Source: a virus
Lineage: Duplodnaviria; Heunggongvirae; Uroviricota; Caudoviricetes
Reading direction: 5' to 3' (one strand)
Virus record (IMG/VR): IMGVR_UViG_2913192161_000002
Coordinates: 1 to 12,310 of that record
Length of the DNA: 12,310 nt
The notes below the pieces were generated by a model. That model made no database searches. It was not told where the DNA came from and saw only the letters and a program-made list of their open reading frames with translations. The position numbers and the translations under genes are program-made. Below are positions 655-12,310 of this stretch, piece after piece; position 1 is the first letter of the stretch; each line of letters opens with the position of its first letter.

Positions 655-1524
655 GTGACTAAAACAACTTCTTTTCAGATCTTCTACGATGCAGAGGATA
701 ACGAATTAGCACAGCATAAAATTGATGCCAAAACATTAAGCATCTCCATAGGTTCGATGGCAGATTTAATATCAGCAGCTGATAAAAGACTTAATGACGG
801 CCAACAAACCGTTAAGTTAATGGTTACTAATCCAGCAGAAGCGGGATCACTCGGCGTATCCTATACCATGATGGAGCTTGTTCCTCATGCCGTCGACGTC
901 GCAAAAGTGATTGGCCTAACAGGGATAGCCGGGGCTGCTATTGGAGCTCCAGCATTATCACTAATCCGCCAACTGGGCAGCAAGAAAGTAATTTCGGTAA
1001 CAAAACGGGCAGGAACAGAAGAATCTGTTCTTGAACTTGAAGGGGAAGAAATTGTTTGCCATGACTCAGTGGCTAAGTTAGTAACAGATCCTGAAGTCCG
1101 TGATGCCCTTGTGAATGTAGTTCGTGCACCATTAGACGGCAAACAAGGTGCAGTATTTAAGGTGCTAAATGATGAAGGCGAAGAAGTCGTTCGTCTTGAA
1201 GGAAGTGAAACCGAAGAGATCAAACCGCTGCCTAGAGGTACACTACTTGAAAAAGAAGAGTCTGTAGAAGAAGTCAATGTTAGATTCGTACAGATCAACT
1301 TCGAGGGTACAAAGGGTTGGAGAATCGATTATTTAGGCGAGGAGCATGCTGTTACCTTTGAAGATCAGTTGTTTATACACCAAGTTCAAAATGGAATCAT
1401 CAGTTTTACAAAAGAAGATTTGTTTGTTGTTGAGCTAAAAACTATAAAAACTTTCACTGCGCGAAATGCCACAACCAAGTATGCTATAACCAAAGTAAAA
1501 CGAAAACGCCCTGCTGAGGCTTGA
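655..1524 (+). CDS. Hypothetical protein, 289 aa, with one glycine-zipper-like hydrophobic segment; first gene of a three-gene accessory cassette
   Basis: Long ORF opposite to the flanking phage late genes and visibly more AT-rich. Internal hydrophobic Gly-rich segment VIGLTGIAGAAIGAPALSLI, an acidic middle region and a basic C-terminal tail KVKRKRPAEA. Start is uncertain: GTG at 655 sits directly against AAAGAG, and the next in-frame ATG is at 757. No family recognised. Confidence 0.65.
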   Translation: MTKTTSFQIFYDAEDNELAQHKIDAKTLSISIGSMADLISAADKRLNDGQQTVKLMVTNPAEAGSLGVSYTMMELVPHAVDVAKVIGLTGIAGAAIGAPALSLIRQLGSKKVISVTKRAGTEESVLELEGEEIVCHDSVAKLVTDPEVRDALVNVVRAPLDGKQGAVFKVLNDEGEEVVRLEGSETEEIKPLPRGTLLEKEESVEEVNVRFVQINFEGTKGWRIDYLGEEHAVTFEDQLFIHQVQNGIISFTKEDLFVVELKTIKTFTARNATTKYAITKVKRKRPAEA

Positions 1525-1790
1525 CAAAAGTGACACTGAACATGCAGATAGCACAACTGATCTTCTGGATAGGGGTGATAATGATCATCCCTGCCTTTAG
1601 TCGTTTTTGCTATTCAGCGTCAGCCTTGCTTTGGCGTCGACTATTCCCTACAAAAGTCTTCGAATTCCGATATCACGATGAAGAATCCGGAGTGACCAAG
1701 ACGCTAGTAATAAAAGTTCCAAGTAAAAAGGGAAAAATGCTAACAACCCTCATTGAAGAGGCAATTGCGGAGAATTCAAAACGAAAATGA
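1521..1790 (+). CDS. Small membrane protein, up to 89 aa, one N-terminal transmembrane helix and a charged C-terminal tail
   Basis: ORF overlaps the upstream stop (TTGA at 1521-1524); alternative starts are GTG at 1530 and ATG at 1542. Hydrophobic segment IAQLIFWIGVIMIIPAF followed by a Lys/Glu-rich tail. Its stop overlaps the next start (ATGA at 1787-1790). Confidence 0.55.
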   Translation: MTKVTLNMQIAQLIFWIGVIMIIPAFSRFCYSASALLWRRLFPTKVFEFRYHDEESGVTKTLVIKVPSKKGKMLTTLIEEAIAENSKRK

Positions 1791-2209
1791 ATTCTCAAAC
1801 TAAAGGTCTAAGCACAGGAAAAGCTACCCTTTCAACTGGTGGTTGGGGAGCAATTCTAAGTGTTCTTGTTAGCGCGATTTTAACCGACCCTAATAGCGTG
1901 TGGCGAACTGTAGCCTACGCATTAGTACCGGGTGTTGCGGCAACTTTAACTTACGTCATGAATTGGTTTATTTCGAGGCATGGTTTCGAATCTCCAGAAG
2001 ACGCAGCCAAAAGAGCAAAATGCAAGCGTGATTTGGCTGAGATTGAGAAGCAGTTACGATCTGACCACTTAAGTCCTGAAATAAAATCAACATTGATGCA
2101 GGCTAAAGCAAGAACAATCGAAATTTTGGTATCAATCGGAAGGGAATCTATACTCGAAACATCTGCGCGTAACATTACACCATCAGAAACTGCCGATCCG
2201 CAAAGCTGA
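1787..2209 (+). CDS. Membrane protein, 140 aa, two predicted transmembrane helices and a charged helical C-terminal domain (holin-like topology)
   Basis: ATG at 1787 overlaps the preceding stop. Two hydrophobic segments (GGWGAILSVLVSAIL and VAYALVPGVAATLTYVMNWFI) followed by a Lys/Arg/Glu-rich region. No family recognised. Confidence 0.6.
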   Translation: MNSQTKGLSTGKATLSTGGWGAILSVLVSAILTDPNSVWRTVAYALVPGVAATLTYVMNWFISRHGFESPEDAAKRAKCKRDLAEIEKQLRSDHLSPEIKSTLMQAKARTIEILVSIGRESILETSARNITPSETADPQS

Positions 2210-3366: not shown

Positions 3367-3529
3367 GACTCCTCCTTGCTGCCAGTCGCAACCATTTTTT
3401 ATCAACCAGGCTGGCGGTATACCCGAGCAGTGTTGGTATTTCGGATGGTTTCAGCTCAGGCTTACGCTTACGACGATTTGGTACTCTGTAGATGTGTCCG
3501 TTCATGACACGAATAAGCGGTGTAGCCAT
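3359..3529 (-). CDS. ninE: NinE
   Basis: Hand translation of the minus strand gives a 56 aa [59 protein letters not shown], which matches lambda/DLP12 NinE. Its ATG overlaps the ybcN stop (TAATG) and its 3' end overlaps the ybcO start. Missing from the ORF track because of length. Confidence 0.8.
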   Translation of the reverse strand: MATPLIRVMNGHIYRVPNRRKRKPELKPSEIPTLLGYTASLVDKKWLRLAARRSHG

Positions 3530-3984
3530 TACGCCTCCTGCTTGTCGCGCAGCAGCTGGAACTCGCAGCTCTGCGGAATAGTCAGGTGGCAGCCAATATT
3601 CATCGCCCAGGCTTCAACCTTACACAGGAAGACATACATCTCTCCGGTATCAAGATCGGAGGTATGGCGTAACGACTGGATCGTAGTGATTTCGCCGGTT
3701 ACGACATCAACCAGGTCCTTGGTTTCATAACCGAGGTATGTGTGTTTGAGAGCATCTTTTACCCATGCTGCGGTAGCGAACGATTTCCCCCTGCTGATGA
3801 GGTATTCACTGATTTCGCTGTACCACATGTGGCTGAGTGCATTCTGGGAAAGACTGCGTTTCTCACGCCACGGTTTAAGCACCATGCGAAAGCATTTTCC
3901 GTCCTCCAGATAAGGCTGGATCTGCTGACCGATAGCGGTGAAGTTGCCGCGATGTAATTTGATGCCGTCTTGTGGGAGGTTCAC
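3529..3984 (-). CDS. ybcN: NinB/Orf-family protein (YbcN-like DNA base-flipping protein)
   Basis: 151 aa product [48 protein letters not shown]... is near-identical to DLP12 YbcN from memory and shares the RSLxQN core with lambda NinB. GTG start with a GGAGGT ribosome-binding site. Confidence 0.9.
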
Positions 3985-4495
3985 GCTTCACCTCCGCAGA
4001 GGTCAAACGTTGGATGCAAAAAATCGCAGGTGCATTTCTGCAACTGTGAAGGGAGAAGAGAGTTTGGATTGTGTGTGCGCATAAACGTCCCCGTTTAGCG
4101 CAGAAGTCACCGGAGGTGTTCAGGCTCCGATGACATGATTATGGCGAGTTGATTATGGAAAATCAATTGAAGATGAAATTCAACAATGCCCCATGGTGCT
4201 ATGGCGCTCAATTAATTATATAACTTCAGAGAAAACTGATAACCCATTGATGATCACATTAGCTCAGACTAAGAAGACTGACAACGGGGACGAACATGAA
4301 CAGCAACGCCTGACATAGGTAAATCTCAAAAGCGAATCATATAATCCTTACCCCATCACTCAGAGACATCGCATAATAACATTCATACCACTATATAACC
4401 TCCAAATAACAACAACAATTCATTGGTTGCATTAATATCAGCGTGTTCCGTTGTTCAGGAATAAAACTTTTTATTTAACAAACAAAGAGAGTTCA

Positions 4496-5452: not shown

Positions 5453-6058
5453 CTACTGCTCAGAACGCAAATGCGGCAATACTCGGCTCCACTTATCATC
5501 CTGCCACGGCTGGAATCTTACATGTGCCGTTTCTCTGGCAAGGATTTCGCGCGCCTTATGTAGTATCTGGGGATATTCTTGCTCAATAGAAGTAAAGCGA
5601 CCGGCTTCGCGATGCTCCGCAACCTGAAGAAGTGGAGTAATATTCTGGCAGGCGGTTAACATCACATCCCCTGCTCGCCATAACCAGGCGAGTGTGCAAA
5701 GTTCGTTATCAGTGAATTGTTTTGTGATTGGGGATTGTTGAACTTCTCGATCGAGAATATCCAGAACCCAGCGGCGGAATTCTTTGGCTACAGGAGTGCG
5801 GGCGAACATAGCGATCAAATGGGCACCACGGAGGGAGAAAATGCGTATTGTTTTCTGGTAGTTCCCTGAGACACTCAAATTGAGGGTCTCAGTCATATCT
5901 GCCCTAAATTCATCGGAATTTCGATCGTAGATCTGAGTTACGGCATCAGATTTTTTATATCCGAGAGCTTGAGCAATCTCAACGGCAGTAAGCCAGATAC
6001 TGTTGTTGTGTTTAACAGGATGGAATTTTGTTTGATGAAAGACTAGTTGTGTGCTCAT
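5453..6058 (-). CDS. Bro-N/AntA-like domain protein (putative antirepressor-type regulator)
   Basis: 201 aa. The N-terminus LVFHQTKFHPVKHNNSIWLTAVEIAQALGYKKSDAVTQIYDRNSDEF fits the Bro-N/AntA pattern (F..F..V....W..A.D/EIA..LGY) from memory. The C-terminal domain is not recognised. Confidence 0.5.
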   Translation of the reverse strand: MSTQLVFHQTKFHPVKHNNSIWLTAVEIAQALGYKKSDAVTQIYDRNSDEFRADMTETLNLSVSGNYQKTIRIFSLRGAHLIAMFARTPVAKEFRRWVLDILDREVQQSPITKQFTDNELCTLAWLWRAGDVMLTACQNITPLLQVAEHREAGRFTSIEQEYPQILHKAREILARETAHVRFQPWQDDKWSRVLPHLRSEQ

Positions 6059-6211
6059 GATGATTACCTATAAATCAAGTTAACCACCACCGCTGACGCC
6101 AATCAGTTTGGTGGTGAGACATGTAGGGTTGGCGTAACCGGGGTAATCAACCGGCCCGACCGAAGTCGGCCCTACACGCCCCACCATAATTCAGATGTGC
6201 GTATGCTTACG

Positions 6212-6238
6212 ACAATAAAAAACACGCTCGCGGCGTGT
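6212..6238 (-). terminator. Rho-independent terminator downstream of ren (tR2-like position)
   Basis: On the minus strand a 6-bp stem ACACGC(cgcga)GCGTGT is followed by TTTTTTATTG, about 100 nt after the ren stop. Confidence 0.6.
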
Positions 6239-6333
6239 AGTAGTCGCGATTACCTTATCCGGGACGCCAATCCCGTGTGCCGATTTTGCGGCAACGCACA
6301 GAATATAGCGCCAGATATTAGTTATCGTCAACC

Positions 6334-8343: not shown

Positions 8344-8889
8344 TCATATTGCCCCCAGCATGGTGGTGACCATCGCCATCAATGGACCAGCCAGATCCGG
8401 GTCCACTCGAAACATCGACACAATGCCTTCACTCATCTCCTTCAGTTTCTGGTGGCGTGGTGCGTTGAGAATGACAGCCTGTTTTGCCTCACTGAGTTCC
8501 TTTTCCATTTCAGCCAACCTAGCCATAAAGCTATCCTGCTCAACCAGGTAACCGCGATATTCCAGCGGTAGTACCGCCAGAATTGCCGGGGTCAGTTCAC
8601 GCACGTTATTTCGGTATTTTTCAGAATCGAATTTGTTATCGAGGAAGCGGAACAGCTTCTGGCGTGCACGGCTGACATCATCAGGGAAATCGATGGTGCC
8701 GCCGCCCTGCTCCCGATACTCATTCACAATGAGTGCGGCAACAACATCCTGATTATCTGCAGCCGACCAGGCGCGGACGGCATCACGGATTTTTTCGTGG
8801 CCTGGAGCTTGTTTTGTTTGAGAACGATTTATCACCGCAGTCGGGCTAAATCCGCTAGTCTGTTGGTATGTAAGTGGTTGCATAGTCAT
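8344..8889 (-). CDS. CII-like regulatory protein (YdaT-like family)
   Basis: 181 aa ORF in the cII position between cro-like and O. Motifs EYREQGGG and LTPAILAVLP resemble what I recall of Rac YdaT-type CII-like proteins. AAGG ribosome-binding site before the ATG at 8889. Confidence 0.5.
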   Translation of the reverse strand: MTMQPLTYQQTSGFSPTAVINRSQTKQAPGHEKIRDAVRAWSAADNQDVVAALIVNEYREQGGGTIDFPDDVSRARQKLFRFLDNKFDSEKYRNNVRELTPAILAVLPLEYRGYLVEQDSFMARLAEMEKELSEAKQAVILNAPRHQKLKEMSEGIVSMFRVDPDLAGPLMAMVTTMLGAI

Positions 8890-8913
8890 TGCCTTATCAG
8901 TTAACGCCGCAGT

Positions 8914-9141
8914 TTAGGCGGCAGAATTACTCGCGTTAAACAATGGTGCGAGGTCGGGACGAATATCTGCTGGTTTAATCTTTCCACCAGTGGCTGAGAC
9001 AATTTTCATTACATAGCGGGCATCAATTCCGCCACCGTGTAGCCAACGCCAAACAGTGGGTTGGGCTACACCGCATAGATCTGCCAGTCGTTTTTGACTA
9101 CCTGTAATACTGATTGCGAGTTGAATGGTTTGATTTGTCAT
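8914..9141 (-). CDS. cro: Cro-like HTH repressor (YdaS-like family)
   Basis: 75 aa from ATG 9141 (AGGA ribosome-binding site). HTH segment LADLCGVAQPTVWRWLHGG. First gene transcribed divergently from cI, downstream of the predicted PR. Confidence 0.7.
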   Translation of the reverse strand: MTNQTIQLAISITGSQKRLADLCGVAQPTVWRWLHGGGIDARYVMKIVSATGGKIKPADIRPDLAPLFNASNSAA

Positions 9142-9172
9142 TATCAATTCCTATTGGTATTGCAATGAATAA

Positions 9173-9242
9173 ATAATAGCAATGCGTATTAATCATAACA
9201 ATAGCAAAACGTGTTTTGACCATCAATACGCAAGCGTATAAA
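9173..9242. promoter_or_regulatory. OR region: three 16-bp operators (6-4-6 inverted repeats, arms AATAGC/AATACG) overlapping divergent PR and PRM candidates
   Basis: Operators read directly: 9175-9190 AATAGC-AATG-CGTATT, 9200-9215 AATAGC-AAAA-CGTGTT, 9225-9240 AATACG-CAAG-CGTATA, centres 25 bp apart. PR on the minus strand: -35 TTGTTA (9196-9201), 17-bp spacer, -10 TATTAT (9173-9178). PRM candidate on the plus strand: -35 TTGACC (9216-9221), -10 TATAAA (9237-9242), implying a near-leaderless cI mRNA. Confidence 0.6.
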
Positions 9243-9251
9243 TTAAAACTT

Positions 9252-9944
9252 ATGAAAAAAGAAACTCTTGCTGATCGCTTAAACCTAGCGATGGAACAAT
9301 CTGGAATGTCTCAAGGCGCTCTTGCAAAGGCGTCTGGCGTAGCTCAACCCACAATCTGGAGACTGACAAGCGGCAACGCGCGCGGCTCAACAAAAATTGT
9401 TGAAATAGCTAATGCATTGGGTGTTCGAACAGAGTGGCTCTCATCAGGCATAGGCCCGATGAGAAATGACGGTCAACAATTAGGGAAGCCTACTGCCAAC
9501 CATCCCAAATACTTCAAGATTGACGTTCTTGATATAGAAGTGAGTGCCGGGCCGGGAGTCATCAACCGTGAGTTTGTAGAAGTTCTACGCTCGGTTGAGT
9601 ACTCGTTTGACGATGCTCGTCACATGTTCGATGGCAGGAAGGCAGAAAATATCCGCATCATTAACGTACGCGGTGACAGCATGTCAGGAACGATCGAACC
9701 AGGTGATCTTCTGTTCGTTGATATCACTGTTAAATCTTTCGACGGTGATGGTATCTATGCGTTTCTGTATGACGACACCGCCCATGTAAAGCGCCTGCAA
9801 ATGATGAAGGATAAGCTGCTGGTTATCTCTGATAACAAGAGCTACTCACCGTGGGACCCGATCGAGAAAGACGAGATGAACCGCGTGTTCATCTTCGGGA
9901 AAGTCATCGGGAGCATGCCGCAGACATATAGAAAGCATGGGTAG
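9252..9944 (+). CDS. cI: CI-like prophage repressor (N-terminal HTH, C-terminal LexA-like S24 autopeptidase domain)
   Basis: From ATG 9252: HTH segment LAKASGVAQPTIWRLTSGN, an Ala-Gly cleavage-site candidate (SAGPG), and a C-terminal GDSM serine motif with VKRL lysine, as in LexA and lambda cI. The ORF-track TTG start at 9216 is rejected because it lies inside the operators. Confidence 0.9.
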   Translation: MKKETLADRLNLAMEQSGMSQGALAKASGVAQPTIWRLTSGNARGSTKIVEIANALGVRTEWLSSGIGPMRNDGQQLGKPTANHPKYFKIDVLDIEVSAGPGVINREFVEVLRSVEYSFDDARHMFDGRKAENIRIINVRGDSMSGTIEPGDLLFVDITVKSFDGDGIYAFLYDDTAHVKRLQMMKDKLLVISDNKSYSPWDPIEKDEMNRVFIFGKVIGSMPQTYRKHG

Positions 9945-10073: not shown

Positions 10074-11213
10074 ATGGCAGCGGTTGAATTTCAATTGTCT
10101 AGGAAGATGATTGATTGGATAGCAAATTCTCAAGGAGTTTCTATCGAAACTCTTGCTGACCAAGTCATGCCCAAAAAGATTAATAAATTTCTTAACGGAG
10201 TGGTAAGTAAATCCGCAGCAGAAAAACTGGCAAAAATTGGAGGAATCCCTTTCGGTTTTTTATTTCTTGAAACGCCACCAACTCCAGCCAAACCCAAGAT
10301 CCCTGACTTAAGGCAAGCTATAAATAGCCGTGAGTTAGGAAAAGATTTTTTTGATGTTTACTATGATATAGAATATAAACTTGAGTGGTACAAAGACTAT
10401 TTAAGAGAAAATGGTAATGATGATCCACTCGATTTTATTGGTAAATTTAAATTTAATAGAAAATTAAATTATAAGGTTGTTGCTACAGACATAGCAAACA
10501 CAATACATTTTGATATACAAAAAGAGATAAAAAATGTCACTTTTGAGAGCTATTTTTCTAAAGTGGCAAAACTAATAGAAGACACTGGCGTATTAGTTTT
10601 CAAGAATGGTGTTGTGGGTAATAATAATAAAAGAAAACTTGACACGCGAGAGTTTCGTGGTTTCTGTATATCTGATAGCGTTGCTCCGATCATTTTTGTA
10701 AATAGCTCGGACGCGTTATCTGCGCAGGTATTTACATTATTTCATGAGGTGGCTCATCTTTGGCTTGGAGTCGATGGAGTCTCTGGGTGGGACACAGAAA
10801 AAAACATAGAATCTTTTTGTAATAAAGTTGCTGCTGAAATCTTAATGCCTGATAATCTCTTCAAATCTTTCTGGCTTAATGCATCCAGCGATAATAATTA
10901 TTATCGAGTAAAAGAGGTTTCTAAGTTATTTAAGGTTAGTGATTTCGCTTGTGCAATCAAAGCGTTACAATTAGATTTGATAGAAAGAAACACTTTGGAG
11001 ATAATTAAAGATCAAGCTTACAATAAGCCCAAAAAAGAATCTAATGGTGGTTCTTTCTTTAACACATTACCTGTTCGTAACAGTCCAAAACTTACGAATA
11101 TAATAATTTCCAAAGCAATGTCTCAACAATTACCATTAAGGGAAGCAGGCGTACTGCTAAATGTAAAAGCAGATACAGTTGTTGAATTTTATAAAAAACG
11201 AGAATCTCTATGA
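10074..11213 (+). CDS. HTH-domain plus ImmA/IrrE-family zinc metallopeptidase (HEXXH)
   Basis: 379 aa. N-terminal region has an XRE-like HTH pattern (SIETLADQV...KKINKFLNG). Central HEVAH motif in the context FTLFHEVAHLWLG is typical of ImmA/IrrE (Peptidase M78) proteins. AGGTGA ribosome-binding site. Very AT-rich compared with cI. The stop overlaps the next start (ATGA). Confidence 0.75.
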   Translation: MAAVEFQLSRKMIDWIANSQGVSIETLADQVMPKKINKFLNGVVSKSAAEKLAKIGGIPFGFLFLETPPTPAKPKIPDLRQAINSRELGKDFFDVYYDIEYKLEWYKDYLRENGNDDPLDFIGKFKFNRKLNYKVVATDIANTIHFDIQKEIKNVTFESYFSKVAKLIEDTGVLVFKNGVVGNNNKRKLDTREFRGFCISDSVAPIIFVNSSDALSAQVFTLFHEVAHLWLGVDGVSGWDTEKNIESFCNKVAAEILMPDNLFKSFWLNASSDNNYYRVKEVSKLFKVSDFACAIKALQLDLIERNTLEIIKDQAYNKPKKESNGGSFFNTLPVRNSPKLTNIIISKAMSQQLPLREAGVLLNVKADTVVEFYKKRESL

Positions 11214-11722
11214 TTCATAATGGAAAATTCTTAATTGATAGTAATGTCTTCATAGAGGCAAAAAACTTTGCATATAACTTCAATTATTGCAAAATATTTT
11301 GGGATTTTCTTCTCGCTTTACACATGAATGGTCTGATTTATAGCATTAATGCTGTAAAAAAAGAACTATGTGCAAAAGATGATCCATTGTGTAAATGGAT
11401 TAAAGAAGAGTTACCATCATCATTCTTCGAAGATGAGCATAGTTCAATAGAAAATTATGCAAAGTTAATAAATTGGTCAACTAAATTAGATGTTACCGAA
11501 AAGGCAAAGTTTGATTTTGCAAGCCATGAAAAAGCAGATGCTTTTTTAATAGCCCATGCGATGACACATGGATATACTATTATTACCCATGAGAAACCAT
11601 CCGGTGGCAAACCTAAAAAAAGAATAATGATCCCGGATGCTGCTGCTTCTCACGGCGTTAAGACATTAACACTATATGAATTTCTTCCAAGATACGCTAG
11701 TCATAATTTTTCTTTGAAATAA
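11210..11722 (+). CDS. PIN-like nuclease-fold protein (DUF4411-like)
   Basis: 170 aa, translationally coupled to the upstream metallopeptidase gene. The N-terminal FLIDSNVFIEA matches the first PIN beta-strand with its conserved Asp, and further acidic residues follow. From memory, DUF4411 proteins typically pair with HTH/ImmA-type partners. Confidence 0.6.
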   Translation: MIHNGKFLIDSNVFIEAKNFAYNFNYCKIFWDFLLALHMNGLIYSINAVKKELCAKDDPLCKWIKEELPSSFFEDEHSSIENYAKLINWSTKLDVTEKAKFDFASHEKADAFLIAHAMTHGYTIITHEKPSGGKPKKRIMIPDAAASHGVKTLTLYEFLPRYASHNFSLK

Positions 11723-11727
11723 AACGT

Positions 11728-11755
11728 CCCGGCCACCGTGCCGGGTTTTCTTTTG
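11728..11755 (+). terminator. Rho-independent terminator after the metallopeptidase/PIN pair
   Basis: CCCGGC(caccgt)GCCGGG hairpin followed by TTTTCTTTTG, 6 nt after the stop at 11722. Confidence 0.7.
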
Positions 11756-11883
11756 TCCCCTCCCCTCATCACACAAACCGTTCGAAAAACCACCACAACC
11801 TCCCTTCAGTTATCGCTATGCGATGCAAGTCACAAAATTAATTCTTTTTGCTATCAAACAGTTAATATCAAAACACATCAATC

Positions 11884-11926
11884 AATAGCAATAAGTATTG
11901 ATACCACCAATAGCAATAGCTATTAT
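11884..11926 (+). promoter_or_regulatory. PL/OL-like early promoter with two operators of the same 6-4-6 type as OR
   Basis: -35 TTGATA (11898-11903), 17-bp spacer, -10 TATTAT (11921-11926). Operators AATAGC-AATA-GCTATT (11909-11924) and AATAGC-AATA-AGTATT (11884-11899), centres 25 bp apart. The operator/-10 overlap mirrors PR. Confidence 0.55.
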
Positions 11927-12119
11927 TACCATGTCGCAACAACACAACGATACGGCAACCACCTGATTCACCGTTGCGATGACCGCTTAGATCCGCAGCT
12001 TGAATTTCGGCAGGCTCCGGGGAGTGCGAGGGGTGAAACGGACGCGTGAACGTCGGTGTGACCAGCTGAAATCAACTCAACACCTCATACCTCAGTCGCT
12101 TCAACGAGGCGGCTTAGTT

Positions 12120-12310
12120 ATGACAACCGGCGGCCATCCACCGCCTGAATACGCGCAGAAGTCTCTATATGTTCAGCAGCCCAGCTTACGGGCAGGAGTT
12201 TTTATGGTTCATCAACATTACGGAACGCAGACCGTTAATCGCGGCGCGGTCATGCCAGGAATGCTGGTCAAACACAAAGATGGTACCTGTGTAAATAGAC
12301 CCGTTTTAGT
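12120..12310 (+). CDS. Hypothetical protein, 5' partial (first 63 codons); first ORF downstream of PL, in the N position but not N-like
   Basis: ATG at 12120 directly follows an in-frame TAG, with GAGG about 11 nt upstream. The frame stays open to the window end (MTTGGHPPPEYAQKSLYVQQPSLRAG...). Codon usage looks enterobacterial. No arginine-rich motif. Not in the ORF track because no stop is reached. Confidence 0.3.
   Translation, partial: MTTGGHPPPEYAQKSLYVQQPSLRAGVFMVHQHYGTQTVNRGAVMPGMLVKHKDGTCVNRPVL

Follow-up and report, generated by a model that had tools for sequence, protein, structure and literature searches.

The operators of phage lambda are 17-bp sites spaced 23-24 bp apart, and the operator of phage 434 is ACAA-N6-TTGT. 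In the prophage CP-933P, the role of Cro is taken by a member of the PF15943 family (PMC8630535). The CP-933P repressor and this YdaS-type Cro leave footprints on the intergenic repeats and at a PL, and the repressor, PaaR2, is described as the regulator of a toxin-antitoxin operon (PMC8630535). YdaT is a functional equivalent of CII, and its recognition helix varies within the family (PMC9986795). For the Salmonella phages, Villafane et al. 2008 (PMC2629481) set the repressor of ST104 apart as a separate specificity type, giving no operators. Lysogens of BTP1 transcribe cI together with bstA as one operon, from a single start site (PMC7067206). The term "operator" is absent from this BTP1 transcriptome paper (PMC7067206), and neither an operator map, experimental or computational, nor a binding experiment was found in the literature for the immunity group considered here.

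The window, by which is meant the whole 12,310-bp stretch of DNA analysed, contains five 16-bp palindromes that, as judged from sequence, very probably serve a lambdoid prophage of E. coli as operators in a lysis/lysogeny switch of the lambda type. This reading is based on where the sites lie and how they are spaced, on the promoter hexamers they overlap, on the way they are conserved and inherited along with cro and the N-terminus of cI, and on the domains of the proteins encoded alongside (Table 1). All five sites fit AATA[GC][CG]-N4-[CG][GC]TATT and are imperfect palindromes, save OL1, the sole perfect one. Three of them (OR1, OR2 and OR3) lie within the cI-cro intergenic region at 9142-9251, and the remaining two form the OL set some 2.7 kb to the right. 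The start-to-start spacing is exactly 25 bp from OR1 to OR2, from OR2 to OR3 and from OL2 to OL1. The first-pass annotation, made from the letters of the sequence, had described 6-4-6 inverted repeats at exact 25-bp spacing that are common to OR and OL, and these were found as described. Its arms, AATAGC/AATACG around a 4-bp centre, are likewise present in the sequence and can be refined, the typical site having AATAGC in one arm and AATAC(G/T) in the other.

Table 1. Operator sites, operator-like elements, promoters and genes of the immunity region, in window coordinates
Feature	Position	Strand	Sequence	Remarks
OR1	9175-9190		AATAGCAATGCGTATT = AATAGC-AATG-CGTATT	overlaps PR -10 hexamer and spacer
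OR2	9200-9215		AATAGCAAAACGTGTT = AATAGC-AAAA-CGTGTT	first 2 bp within PR -35; right edge abuts PRM -35
OR3	9225-9240		AATACGCAAGCGTATA = AATACG-CAAG-CGTATA	between PRM hexamers; overlaps first 2 bp of PRM -10
OL2	11884-11899		AATAGCAATAAGTATT = AATAGC-AATA-AGTATT	last 2 bp within PL -35
OL1	11909-11924		AATAGCAATAGCTATT = AATAGC-AATA-GCTATT	overlaps PL spacer and -10
Element over cro Shine-Dalgarno sequence	9146-9161		AATTCC-TATT-GGTATT	starts 29 bp from OR1 start
Possible degenerate OL3	11864-11879		AATATC-AAAA-CACATC	only left arm good; 20 bp upstream of OL2
OL-distal element	11840-11855		AATTCTTTTTGCTATC = AATTCT-TTTT-GCTATC	only right arm good
PR	9201-9173	-	-35 TTGTTA (9201..9196), 17-bp spacer, -10 TATTAT (9178..9173)	TG upstream of -10; drives cro
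Candidate PRM	9216-9244	+	TTGACC-17-TAAATT	9/12 consensus matches
PL	11898-11926	+	TTGATA-17-TATTAT	10/12 consensus matches
YdaT-family gene, cII position	8344-8889	-		PF06254, E 1.5e-29
cro	8914-9141	-		75 aa; YdaS/Cro family, PF15943 "YdaS_toxin", E 9.6e-15
cI repressor	9252-9944	+		230 aa; N-terminal HTH_3 and C-terminal Peptidase_S24 (Pfam; S24 E 1.3e-18)
Accessory genes, rexAB position, between cI and OL	10074-11745	+		including hairpin
ImmA/IrrE-type M78 peptidase	10074-11213	+		
DUF4411 protein	11210-11722	+		
Terminator-like hairpin	11728-11745			after DUF4411 gene

The proteins encoded on either side of OR are recognizable members of known regulator families. Among solved structures, the N-terminal domain of cI is nearest to 434 repressor (E 1.5e-5 to 6.5e-5), and its C-terminal domain is nearest to UmuD. 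The C-terminal S24 domain carries the predicted motifs of RecA-dependent self-cleavage, and three homologues all keep Ala99-Gly100, Ser143 (in GDSM) and Lys180. The closest solved structures to Cro are Xfaso 1 Cro (3bd1) and XPH1 (5w8y), and its fold is probably all-helical. The nearly identical recognition helices to which the first-pass annotation had pointed can be read in both translations, as GVAQPTVWRW in Cro and GVAQPTIWRL in cI; overall, the two proteins align with 32% identity over 65 residues (E 5e-9). A recent gene conversion between cI and cro was considered as the source of the identical helices and rejected, as a comparison by eye shows four of the seven codons for shared residues with room for variation to differ at the third, or a synonymous, base. 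The replication genes O and P come next after the YdaT-family gene, and no N gene follows PL in the window.

Promoter hexamers were taken from a consensus scan that was run without knowledge of the repeats. At PR, OR1 lies over the -10 hexamer and the spacer, and OL1 does so at PL; OR2 and OL2 each share 2 bp with a -35 hexamer, and OR2 ends one base ahead of the -35 hexamer of PRM. An overlap of the promoter-proximal site with the -10 hexamer had been noted earlier for both promoters and is confirmed for both: at PL, AATAGCAATAGCTATTAT corresponds to 11909-11926 on the + strand, and at PR, AATACGCATTGCTATTAT is the reverse complement of 9173-9190, with the -10 hexamer TATTAT forming the last six bases of each. 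The scanned region returned 13 promoter-like matches against 8.9 in shuffles, a total not far above chance, and the weight of the promoter calls therefore comes mainly from their position and conservation. The -10 hexamer of PRM ends 8 bases before the cI start codon (ATG 9252), upstream of which there is no Shine-Dalgarno sequence. Because the transcription start predicted for PRM falls within a few bases of this ATG and a Shine-Dalgarno sequence is lacking, the cI mRNA is probably leaderless, as documented for the repressor genes lambda cI and CP-933P paaR2 (PMC8630535). Both the PRM assignment and the leaderless start are candidates, with the 9/12 consensus match as their basis.

From this layout we infer binding, its order and cooperativity, the activation of PRM, the transcription starts and SOS induction, in the following manner. 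Dimers of cI would bind OR1 and OR2, as well as OL1 and OL2, thereby covering the -10 and -35 hexamers of PR and PL and switching off the early genes. On OR2, beside the -35 hexamer of PRM and centred at about -43 from the predicted start, cI would probably activate its own transcription. OR3 lies within PRM, and its filling, either by Cro early or by excess cI, would shut this promoter off. Cro would bind the same sites by way of its nearly identical recognition helix, and in both proteins the first Gln of the helix probably reads the invariant A at half-site position 2, as in 434 and lambda. Induction would probably proceed through RecA-stimulated self-cleavage of cI at Ala99-Gly100.

Whether one half-site could serve both proteins is addressed by comparison of recognition helices with half-sites, the latter numbered from the outside of the 16-bp site. 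The window pairs QPTIWR in cI and QPTVWR in Cro with AATA(G/C)(C/G); A occupies +2 in all ten half-sites of the five sites, +5 is G in five and C in five but never A, and C is found at +6 in 5/10. SaltyDalty combines cI QPTIWR and Cro QPSVSR with (G/A)ATAGC, Mulock combines cI QSSVNK and Cro QSTICD with AATCGC, and HK639 combines cI QPAIQK and Cro QPAVHK with xATAACC. PhiR47_2, ST101-KPC2phi6.1 and PSTCR7lys have cI QAAIQK and Cro QQAV(Y/F)K, along with xACAAC(C/T). Gln at helix position 1 pairs with A at +2 in all six immunity groups and, without exception among them, Ala at H3 pairs with A at +5 and Thr or Ser with G or C. In the published Cro code (Hall et al., summarised in PMC6649833), Gln specifies A at +2, Ala specifies A and Ser or Thr specifies G at +5, and Lys specifies C and Gln specifies G at +6. 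The window and the other groups appear to fit this code partly. The rule relating Thr at H3 to G at +5 fits only the AATAGC class of arms, since half of the arms carry CG, not GC, at positions 5-6, and the Arg found at H6 of the window helix is outside the published code.

Across the six immunity groups, the helices of cI and Cro shift in step with the half-site. The earlier proposal that cI and Cro read the same half-site through homologous helices thus gains indirect support, because the two helices change together within each phage, and such shared reading is probable. An improbable alternative holds that the sites are bound by cI only, with Cro acting on a subset of them, in a shifted register or elsewhere, as in some telomere phages. 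[quoted passage not shown] However, helix positions 1, 2, 3 and 6 are identical in Cro and cI and vary together in most of the six groups, and the footprints of the YdaS-type Cro and the repressor overlap in CP-933P (PMC8630535). Joint use of the sites by cI and Cro is accordingly the preferred reading.

Further support for a functional connection between the sites and both regulators is provided by the phage PhiR47_2. In a comparison with the window in 40-bp steps, PhiR47_2 shows 90-100% identity over two stretches, 7800 to about 8880 and about 9515 to 9915, and 22-72% in the block between them. Outside about 8885-9514 and downstream of PL its identity is at least 95%, against 40-70% inside. 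This divergent block consists of cro, OR, and the N-terminal domain and linker of cI. The OL sites of the two sequences differ as well, and near-identity resumes just past the PL -10 hexamer. PhiR47_2 also possesses three OR and two OL operators, these being ACAACC-N2-GGTTGT with a spacing of 23-24 bp. As PhiR47_2 has exchanged cro, OR, the cI N-terminus and OL, the operators are inherited together with both DNA-binding domains, and the operators, the cI DNA-binding domain and cro constitute an exchangeable immunity cassette.

The same comparison bears on the proposal that the repeats are read by neither cI nor Cro but by another protein, such as a host factor or the CII analogue of the YdaT type. 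Inverted repeats are recognized by YdaT, a tetrameric HTH protein (PMC9986795), and a search of the window for its motif placed one perfect copy at 4149-4166 and, adjoining OR, a copy with one mismatch at 9130-9147. The YdaT motif, TTGATT-N6-AATCAA (PMC9986795), is unrelated to AATAGC-N4-GCTATT, though, and the half-sites vary together with the helices of cI and Cro. Moreover, the YdaT gene of PhiR47_2 is essentially identical to that of the window in spite of the different operators, which argues that YdaT is not the reader of the sites. A reader other than cI or Cro is consequently very improbable, and recognition by these two proteins continues to be favoured.

The immunity region is widespread, which allowed its conservation to be followed across genera. 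It recurs with 97-98% identity in the Escherichia phages 4A7, Lambda_4C10, D2, 1W, 3W, Perceval, PhiR70_1, PhiR68_2 and PhiR30_1, and is present at a query coverage of at least 80% in 718 of 5426 complete E. coli genomes (~13%). The immunity type is not new as sequence, since an identical cI is already found in the sequenced phages 4A7, Lambda_4C10, D2, 1W, 3W and Perceval. Phages with this region, such as 4A7 and Perceval, are now used experimentally, Perceval being named in a preprint on the LF82 prophage. cI proteins of 82-85% identity are encoded by Klebsiella phages and by the P22-like Salmonella phages BTP1, ST104, ST160 and SE1, and a cI of this identity is also present in Kluyvera, Citrobacter and Raoultella chromosomes. 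BTP1 and ST104 of Salmonella have near-identical operators.

A scan of genome contigs yielded six loci. To assess the sites themselves, 10 loci were compared, with Escherichia, Klebsiella, Salmonella, Kluyvera, Citrobacter and Raoultella represented. OR1-OR3 are spaced at 25 + 25 bp and OL1-OL2 at 25 bp in all 10. An alignment of the intergenic regions shows the arms, the PRM hexamers and the stretch from OR2 to OR3 to be invariant or nearly so: the AATAGC arm of OR1 is kept in 9/10 loci and is GATAGC in the other, and the arms of OR2 are identical throughout, with a single central base differing in one locus. The 9-bp spacer between OR1 and OR2 and the PR leader vary freely, and only the TTG of the PR -35 hexamer is kept in all relatives. 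The comparison of operators across related prophages that the first-pass annotation had suggested as a check therefore returns the same arms and spacing in 10 loci from six genera.

The frequency of the motif was evaluated with the degenerate pattern AATASSNNNNSSTATT, allowing at most one mismatch, in the 12310-bp window and in 200 shuffles of it. Six matches are found against 0.37 expected, and 0/200 shuffles reach six. The same six are the only matches to AATASSNNNNSSTATT in 41 kb of the E. coli SCU-152 chromosome, where 0.96 would be expected; this stretch comprises a prophage next to icd that carries an identical immunity region. The search for further AATAGC-N4-GCTATT sites, also proposed earlier, thus added one sequence to the five in the window and the 41 kb, namely 9146-9161, which lies over the cro Shine-Dalgarno sequence. 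The notion that the repeats are a by-product of AT-rich promoters or of a 25-bp tandem duplication, with no binding role, draws on the AT-richness of the region, on -10-proximal arms partly fixed by the TATTAT hexamers, and on a repeat search that also returns the sites as 25-bp direct repeats, but it is scarcely credible given the shuffles, the retention of the arms in six genera while spacers vary, the recurrence of the motif 2.7 kb off at PL and nowhere else in 41 kb, and its replacement as a unit with the regulator genes in PhiR47_2.

Besides the five sites, the region contains weaker elements of similar appearance. The first-pass count of three OR and two OL sites holds insofar as there are five full sites, but OL may hold more, at the degenerate 11864-11879 and the distal 11840-11855. 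The sixth match, at 9146-9161, has invariant ATTCC and GTAT arms and a variable centre in the 10 loci; the ribosome-binding site can explain its left arm, but not its right. Sequences resembling the phage's own operator occupy the same position relative to the cro ribosome-binding site in PhiR47_2 (ACAACCTCCGTGGT), PSTCR7lys (AAAACCTCCGTTGT) and Mulock (AATCACCTCAGCTATT), whereas HK639 has no own-operator-like sequence over its cro ribosome-binding site. At the position of the possible OL3, a full palindrome is found in Klebsiella phage ST11-VIM1phi8.2 (AATAGCCATTGCTATC) and in Raoultella (AATGCTAATTGCTATT). The block at 11840-11855 is kept in all 10 loci of the immunity group, and it is present in HK639 too, where the one good arm reads GTTATC instead of GCTATC, matching that phage's own ATAAC half-site. 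The elements at 9146-9161, 11840-11855 and 11864-11879 may be weak extra operators, and the three-plus-two picture may be incomplete on their account. That the operators do exceed the classical three-plus-two sites, with repressor or Cro binding the extra elements, is nonetheless considered doubtful. If true, the layout would be four-plus-four, and the site in the cro leader could block elongation or provide a further anchor for OL-OR looping.

Taken together, the window represents an ordinary lambdoid immunity region of a widespread group for whose operators no published mapping was found. It leaves the understanding of the switch mechanism unchanged. The operator map does, however, predict homo-immune prophages across genera, and it offers promoter and operator parts orthogonal to those of lambda, 434 and P22. 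It also adds to the data on co-variation between the helices of Cro and CI and the bases they face, with one helix, QPT-WR, accompanied by both GC and CG at positions 5-6.

In its overall architecture, the region resembles that of lambda. Three tandem imperfect palindromes lie between the divergent cI and cro genes, such that the proximal sites cover PR, one abuts the -35 hexamer of PRM and the third falls inside PRM. A second operator set is found at PL, about 2.7 kb away and past the genes in the rexAB position, cI has a C-terminal domain of the self-cleaving S24 type, and the repressor mRNA is probably leaderless. The sites themselves differ from those of lambda in being 16 bp long with the dyad between base pairs and a 25-bp spacing, and their half-site is AATA(G/C)(C/G) instead of TATCACC. 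Furthermore, unlike lambda, the window has a YdaS-type Cro, a YdaT-family gene in the cII position, only two full sites at OL, and no N gene after PL. The likeness to 434 resides in the near-identical recognition helices of repressor and Cro, which start with Gln, and in an outer conserved A located 6.5 bp from the dyad, like A1 of ACAA. The operators are distinct, however (AATAGC-N4-GCTATT in the window), as are the helices (QPTIWR versus QQSIEQ in 434), and the window Cro is nearest to the true Cro lineage, represented by Xfaso 1 Cro, and is not a displaced copy of the repressor N-terminus. The operator consensus sequences of lambda and P22 also differ from those of the window, in agreement with the earlier claim of a specificity other than that of lambda, 434 and P22.

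HK022 and HK75 were considered as members of the same immunity and rejected, as only the cI C-terminal domain is common, the N-terminal domain and operators being unrelated; the HK022-type operators annotated in HK75 are TGAACTTATGGTTCA, unlike those of the window. Outside the immunity group and its mosaic relatives, the best match to cI has approximately 45% identity, and no phage 21 record appeared among the matches.

Two systems with related Cro proteins or sites can be compared at the level of the operators. CP-933P has the same gene families in the Cro and CII positions and also a leaderless repressor gene (PMC8630535, PMC9986795), but its repeats have the consensus GTTTAGTAA and form four inverted repeats (PMC8630535). 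The OR consensus of N15 Cro, TTATAGCT|AGCTATAA, likewise describes sites of 16 bp whose dyad falls between base pairs, with ATAGC in the half-site (PMC6649833). This pentamer occupies positions 3-7 in N15 and 2-6 in the window, and the N15 helix, TPGAVYQW, has Pro at H1, where the half-site shows T at +2. A contact pattern shared through ATAGC was therefore rejected, on account of the one-base shift per half-site and the different helices.

Close counterparts of this immunity region are found in the Salmonella phages BTP1, ST104, ST160 and SE1. Their virion type, accessory genes (bstA) and cII type differ from those of the window, as does the presence of N after PL, and in BTP1 a sequence like a third OL site lies 20 bp upstream of OL2. 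Nevertheless, their cI matches at 85% identity and keeps the recognition helix unchanged, their Cro helix is QPTVWRW, and their operators agree with those of the window, in arms and 25-bp spacing for OR1-OR3 and also at OL1 and OL2. The window and the ST104/BTP1 phages thus probably belong to the same immunity group.

Compared with PhiR47_2, a phage of another immunity group, the window has sharp mosaic borders near 8885, 9515 and 11930. The exchangeable immunity cassette extends from the cro stop codon through the whole cI linker, and its far limit, on the PL side, is situated just past the PL -10. Different immunity groups share the C-terminal domain of cI, whose DNA is 90-100% identical when compared in 40-bp steps.

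The record of BTP1, a Salmonella phage with an 85% identical repressor, begins cI (3465-4190) at an upstream TTG within OR2/OR3, which makes the protein 12 codons longer, and the matching in-frame extension is also open in the window (ORF 9216-9944). Because this extension varies non-synonymously among relatives, and RefSeq/PGAP choose the ATG, the TTG start is probably an annotation artefact.

Further operator-like elements accompany the predicted operators (see table). The good arm of the OL-distal block differs by one base in HK639, a phage of another immunity group, and matches that phage's own half-site change. Two copies of the published CP-933P YdaT motif (TTGATT-N6-AATCAA; PMC9986795) are also present. 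The perfect copy, matched at 12 of 12 bases, is unlikely to occur by chance in 12 kb; the consensus is that of CP-933P YdaT, and may not be that of the YdaT encoded here.

No N-like gene is found downstream of PL (window 11930-12125). The approximately 190 bp past PL are near-identical in the window, in 4A7 (a phage with identical cI) and in PhiR47_2, whose immunity differs. This stretch is partially similar to one annotated in the HK639 record as a putL-like antiterminator RNA. Antitermination in this group of phages may be RNA-based (HK022-type).

Positions of additional features in the window
Feature	Position	Strand	Remark
Small ORF	1521-1790		After the 289-aa gene
Small ORF, predicted membrane-like segments	1787-2209		After ORF 1521-1790
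CP-933P YdaT motif, perfect copy, TTGATTATGGAAAATCAA	4149-4166		In gap between ninB and 240-codon ORF
Bro-N / P22_AR_C antirepressor-like gene	5453-6058	-	
C4 antisense RNA	6107-6191	-	Rfam, 74 bits
isrK	6217-6293	-	Rfam, 61 bits
CP-933P YdaT motif, one mismatch, TTGATTTGTCATTATCAA	9130-9147		Spans cro start codon
Operator-like element	9146-9161		Over cro ribosome-binding site
ImmA/IrrE-type M78 metallopeptidase, 379 aa	within 10074-11745		HEVAH motif
DUF4411 protein, 170 aa	within 10074-11745		
Bidirectional terminator-like hairpin	11728-11745		3' of peptidase/DUF4411 pair
Conserved OL-distal block, operator-like	11840-11855		
Possible degenerate OL3, operator-like	11864-11879		

Two small RNAs, C4 antisense RNA and isrK, lie immediately upstream of the antirepressor-like gene, an arrangement that suggests that the same prophage has a second antirepressor module, under RNA control. 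At the left end, the 289-aa protein of 655-1524 (+) matches the PADLOC candidate defence family PDC-S42 over its full length (E 8.8e-33), and matches no Pfam family.

The M78 peptidase and DUF4411 genes overlap by 4 bp, and the peptidase matches the PADLOC capP (9.8e-15) and RmrA models, both weakly. Together they are probably an accessory or defence pair, expressed in the prophage and transcribed from PRM. They occupy the cI-OL interval that in lambda is held by rexAB; among relatives the cargo in this position differs, being bstA in BTP1, GevT/GevA in PhiR47_2 and RexAB in ST101-KPC2phi6.1, a further phage of another immunity group.
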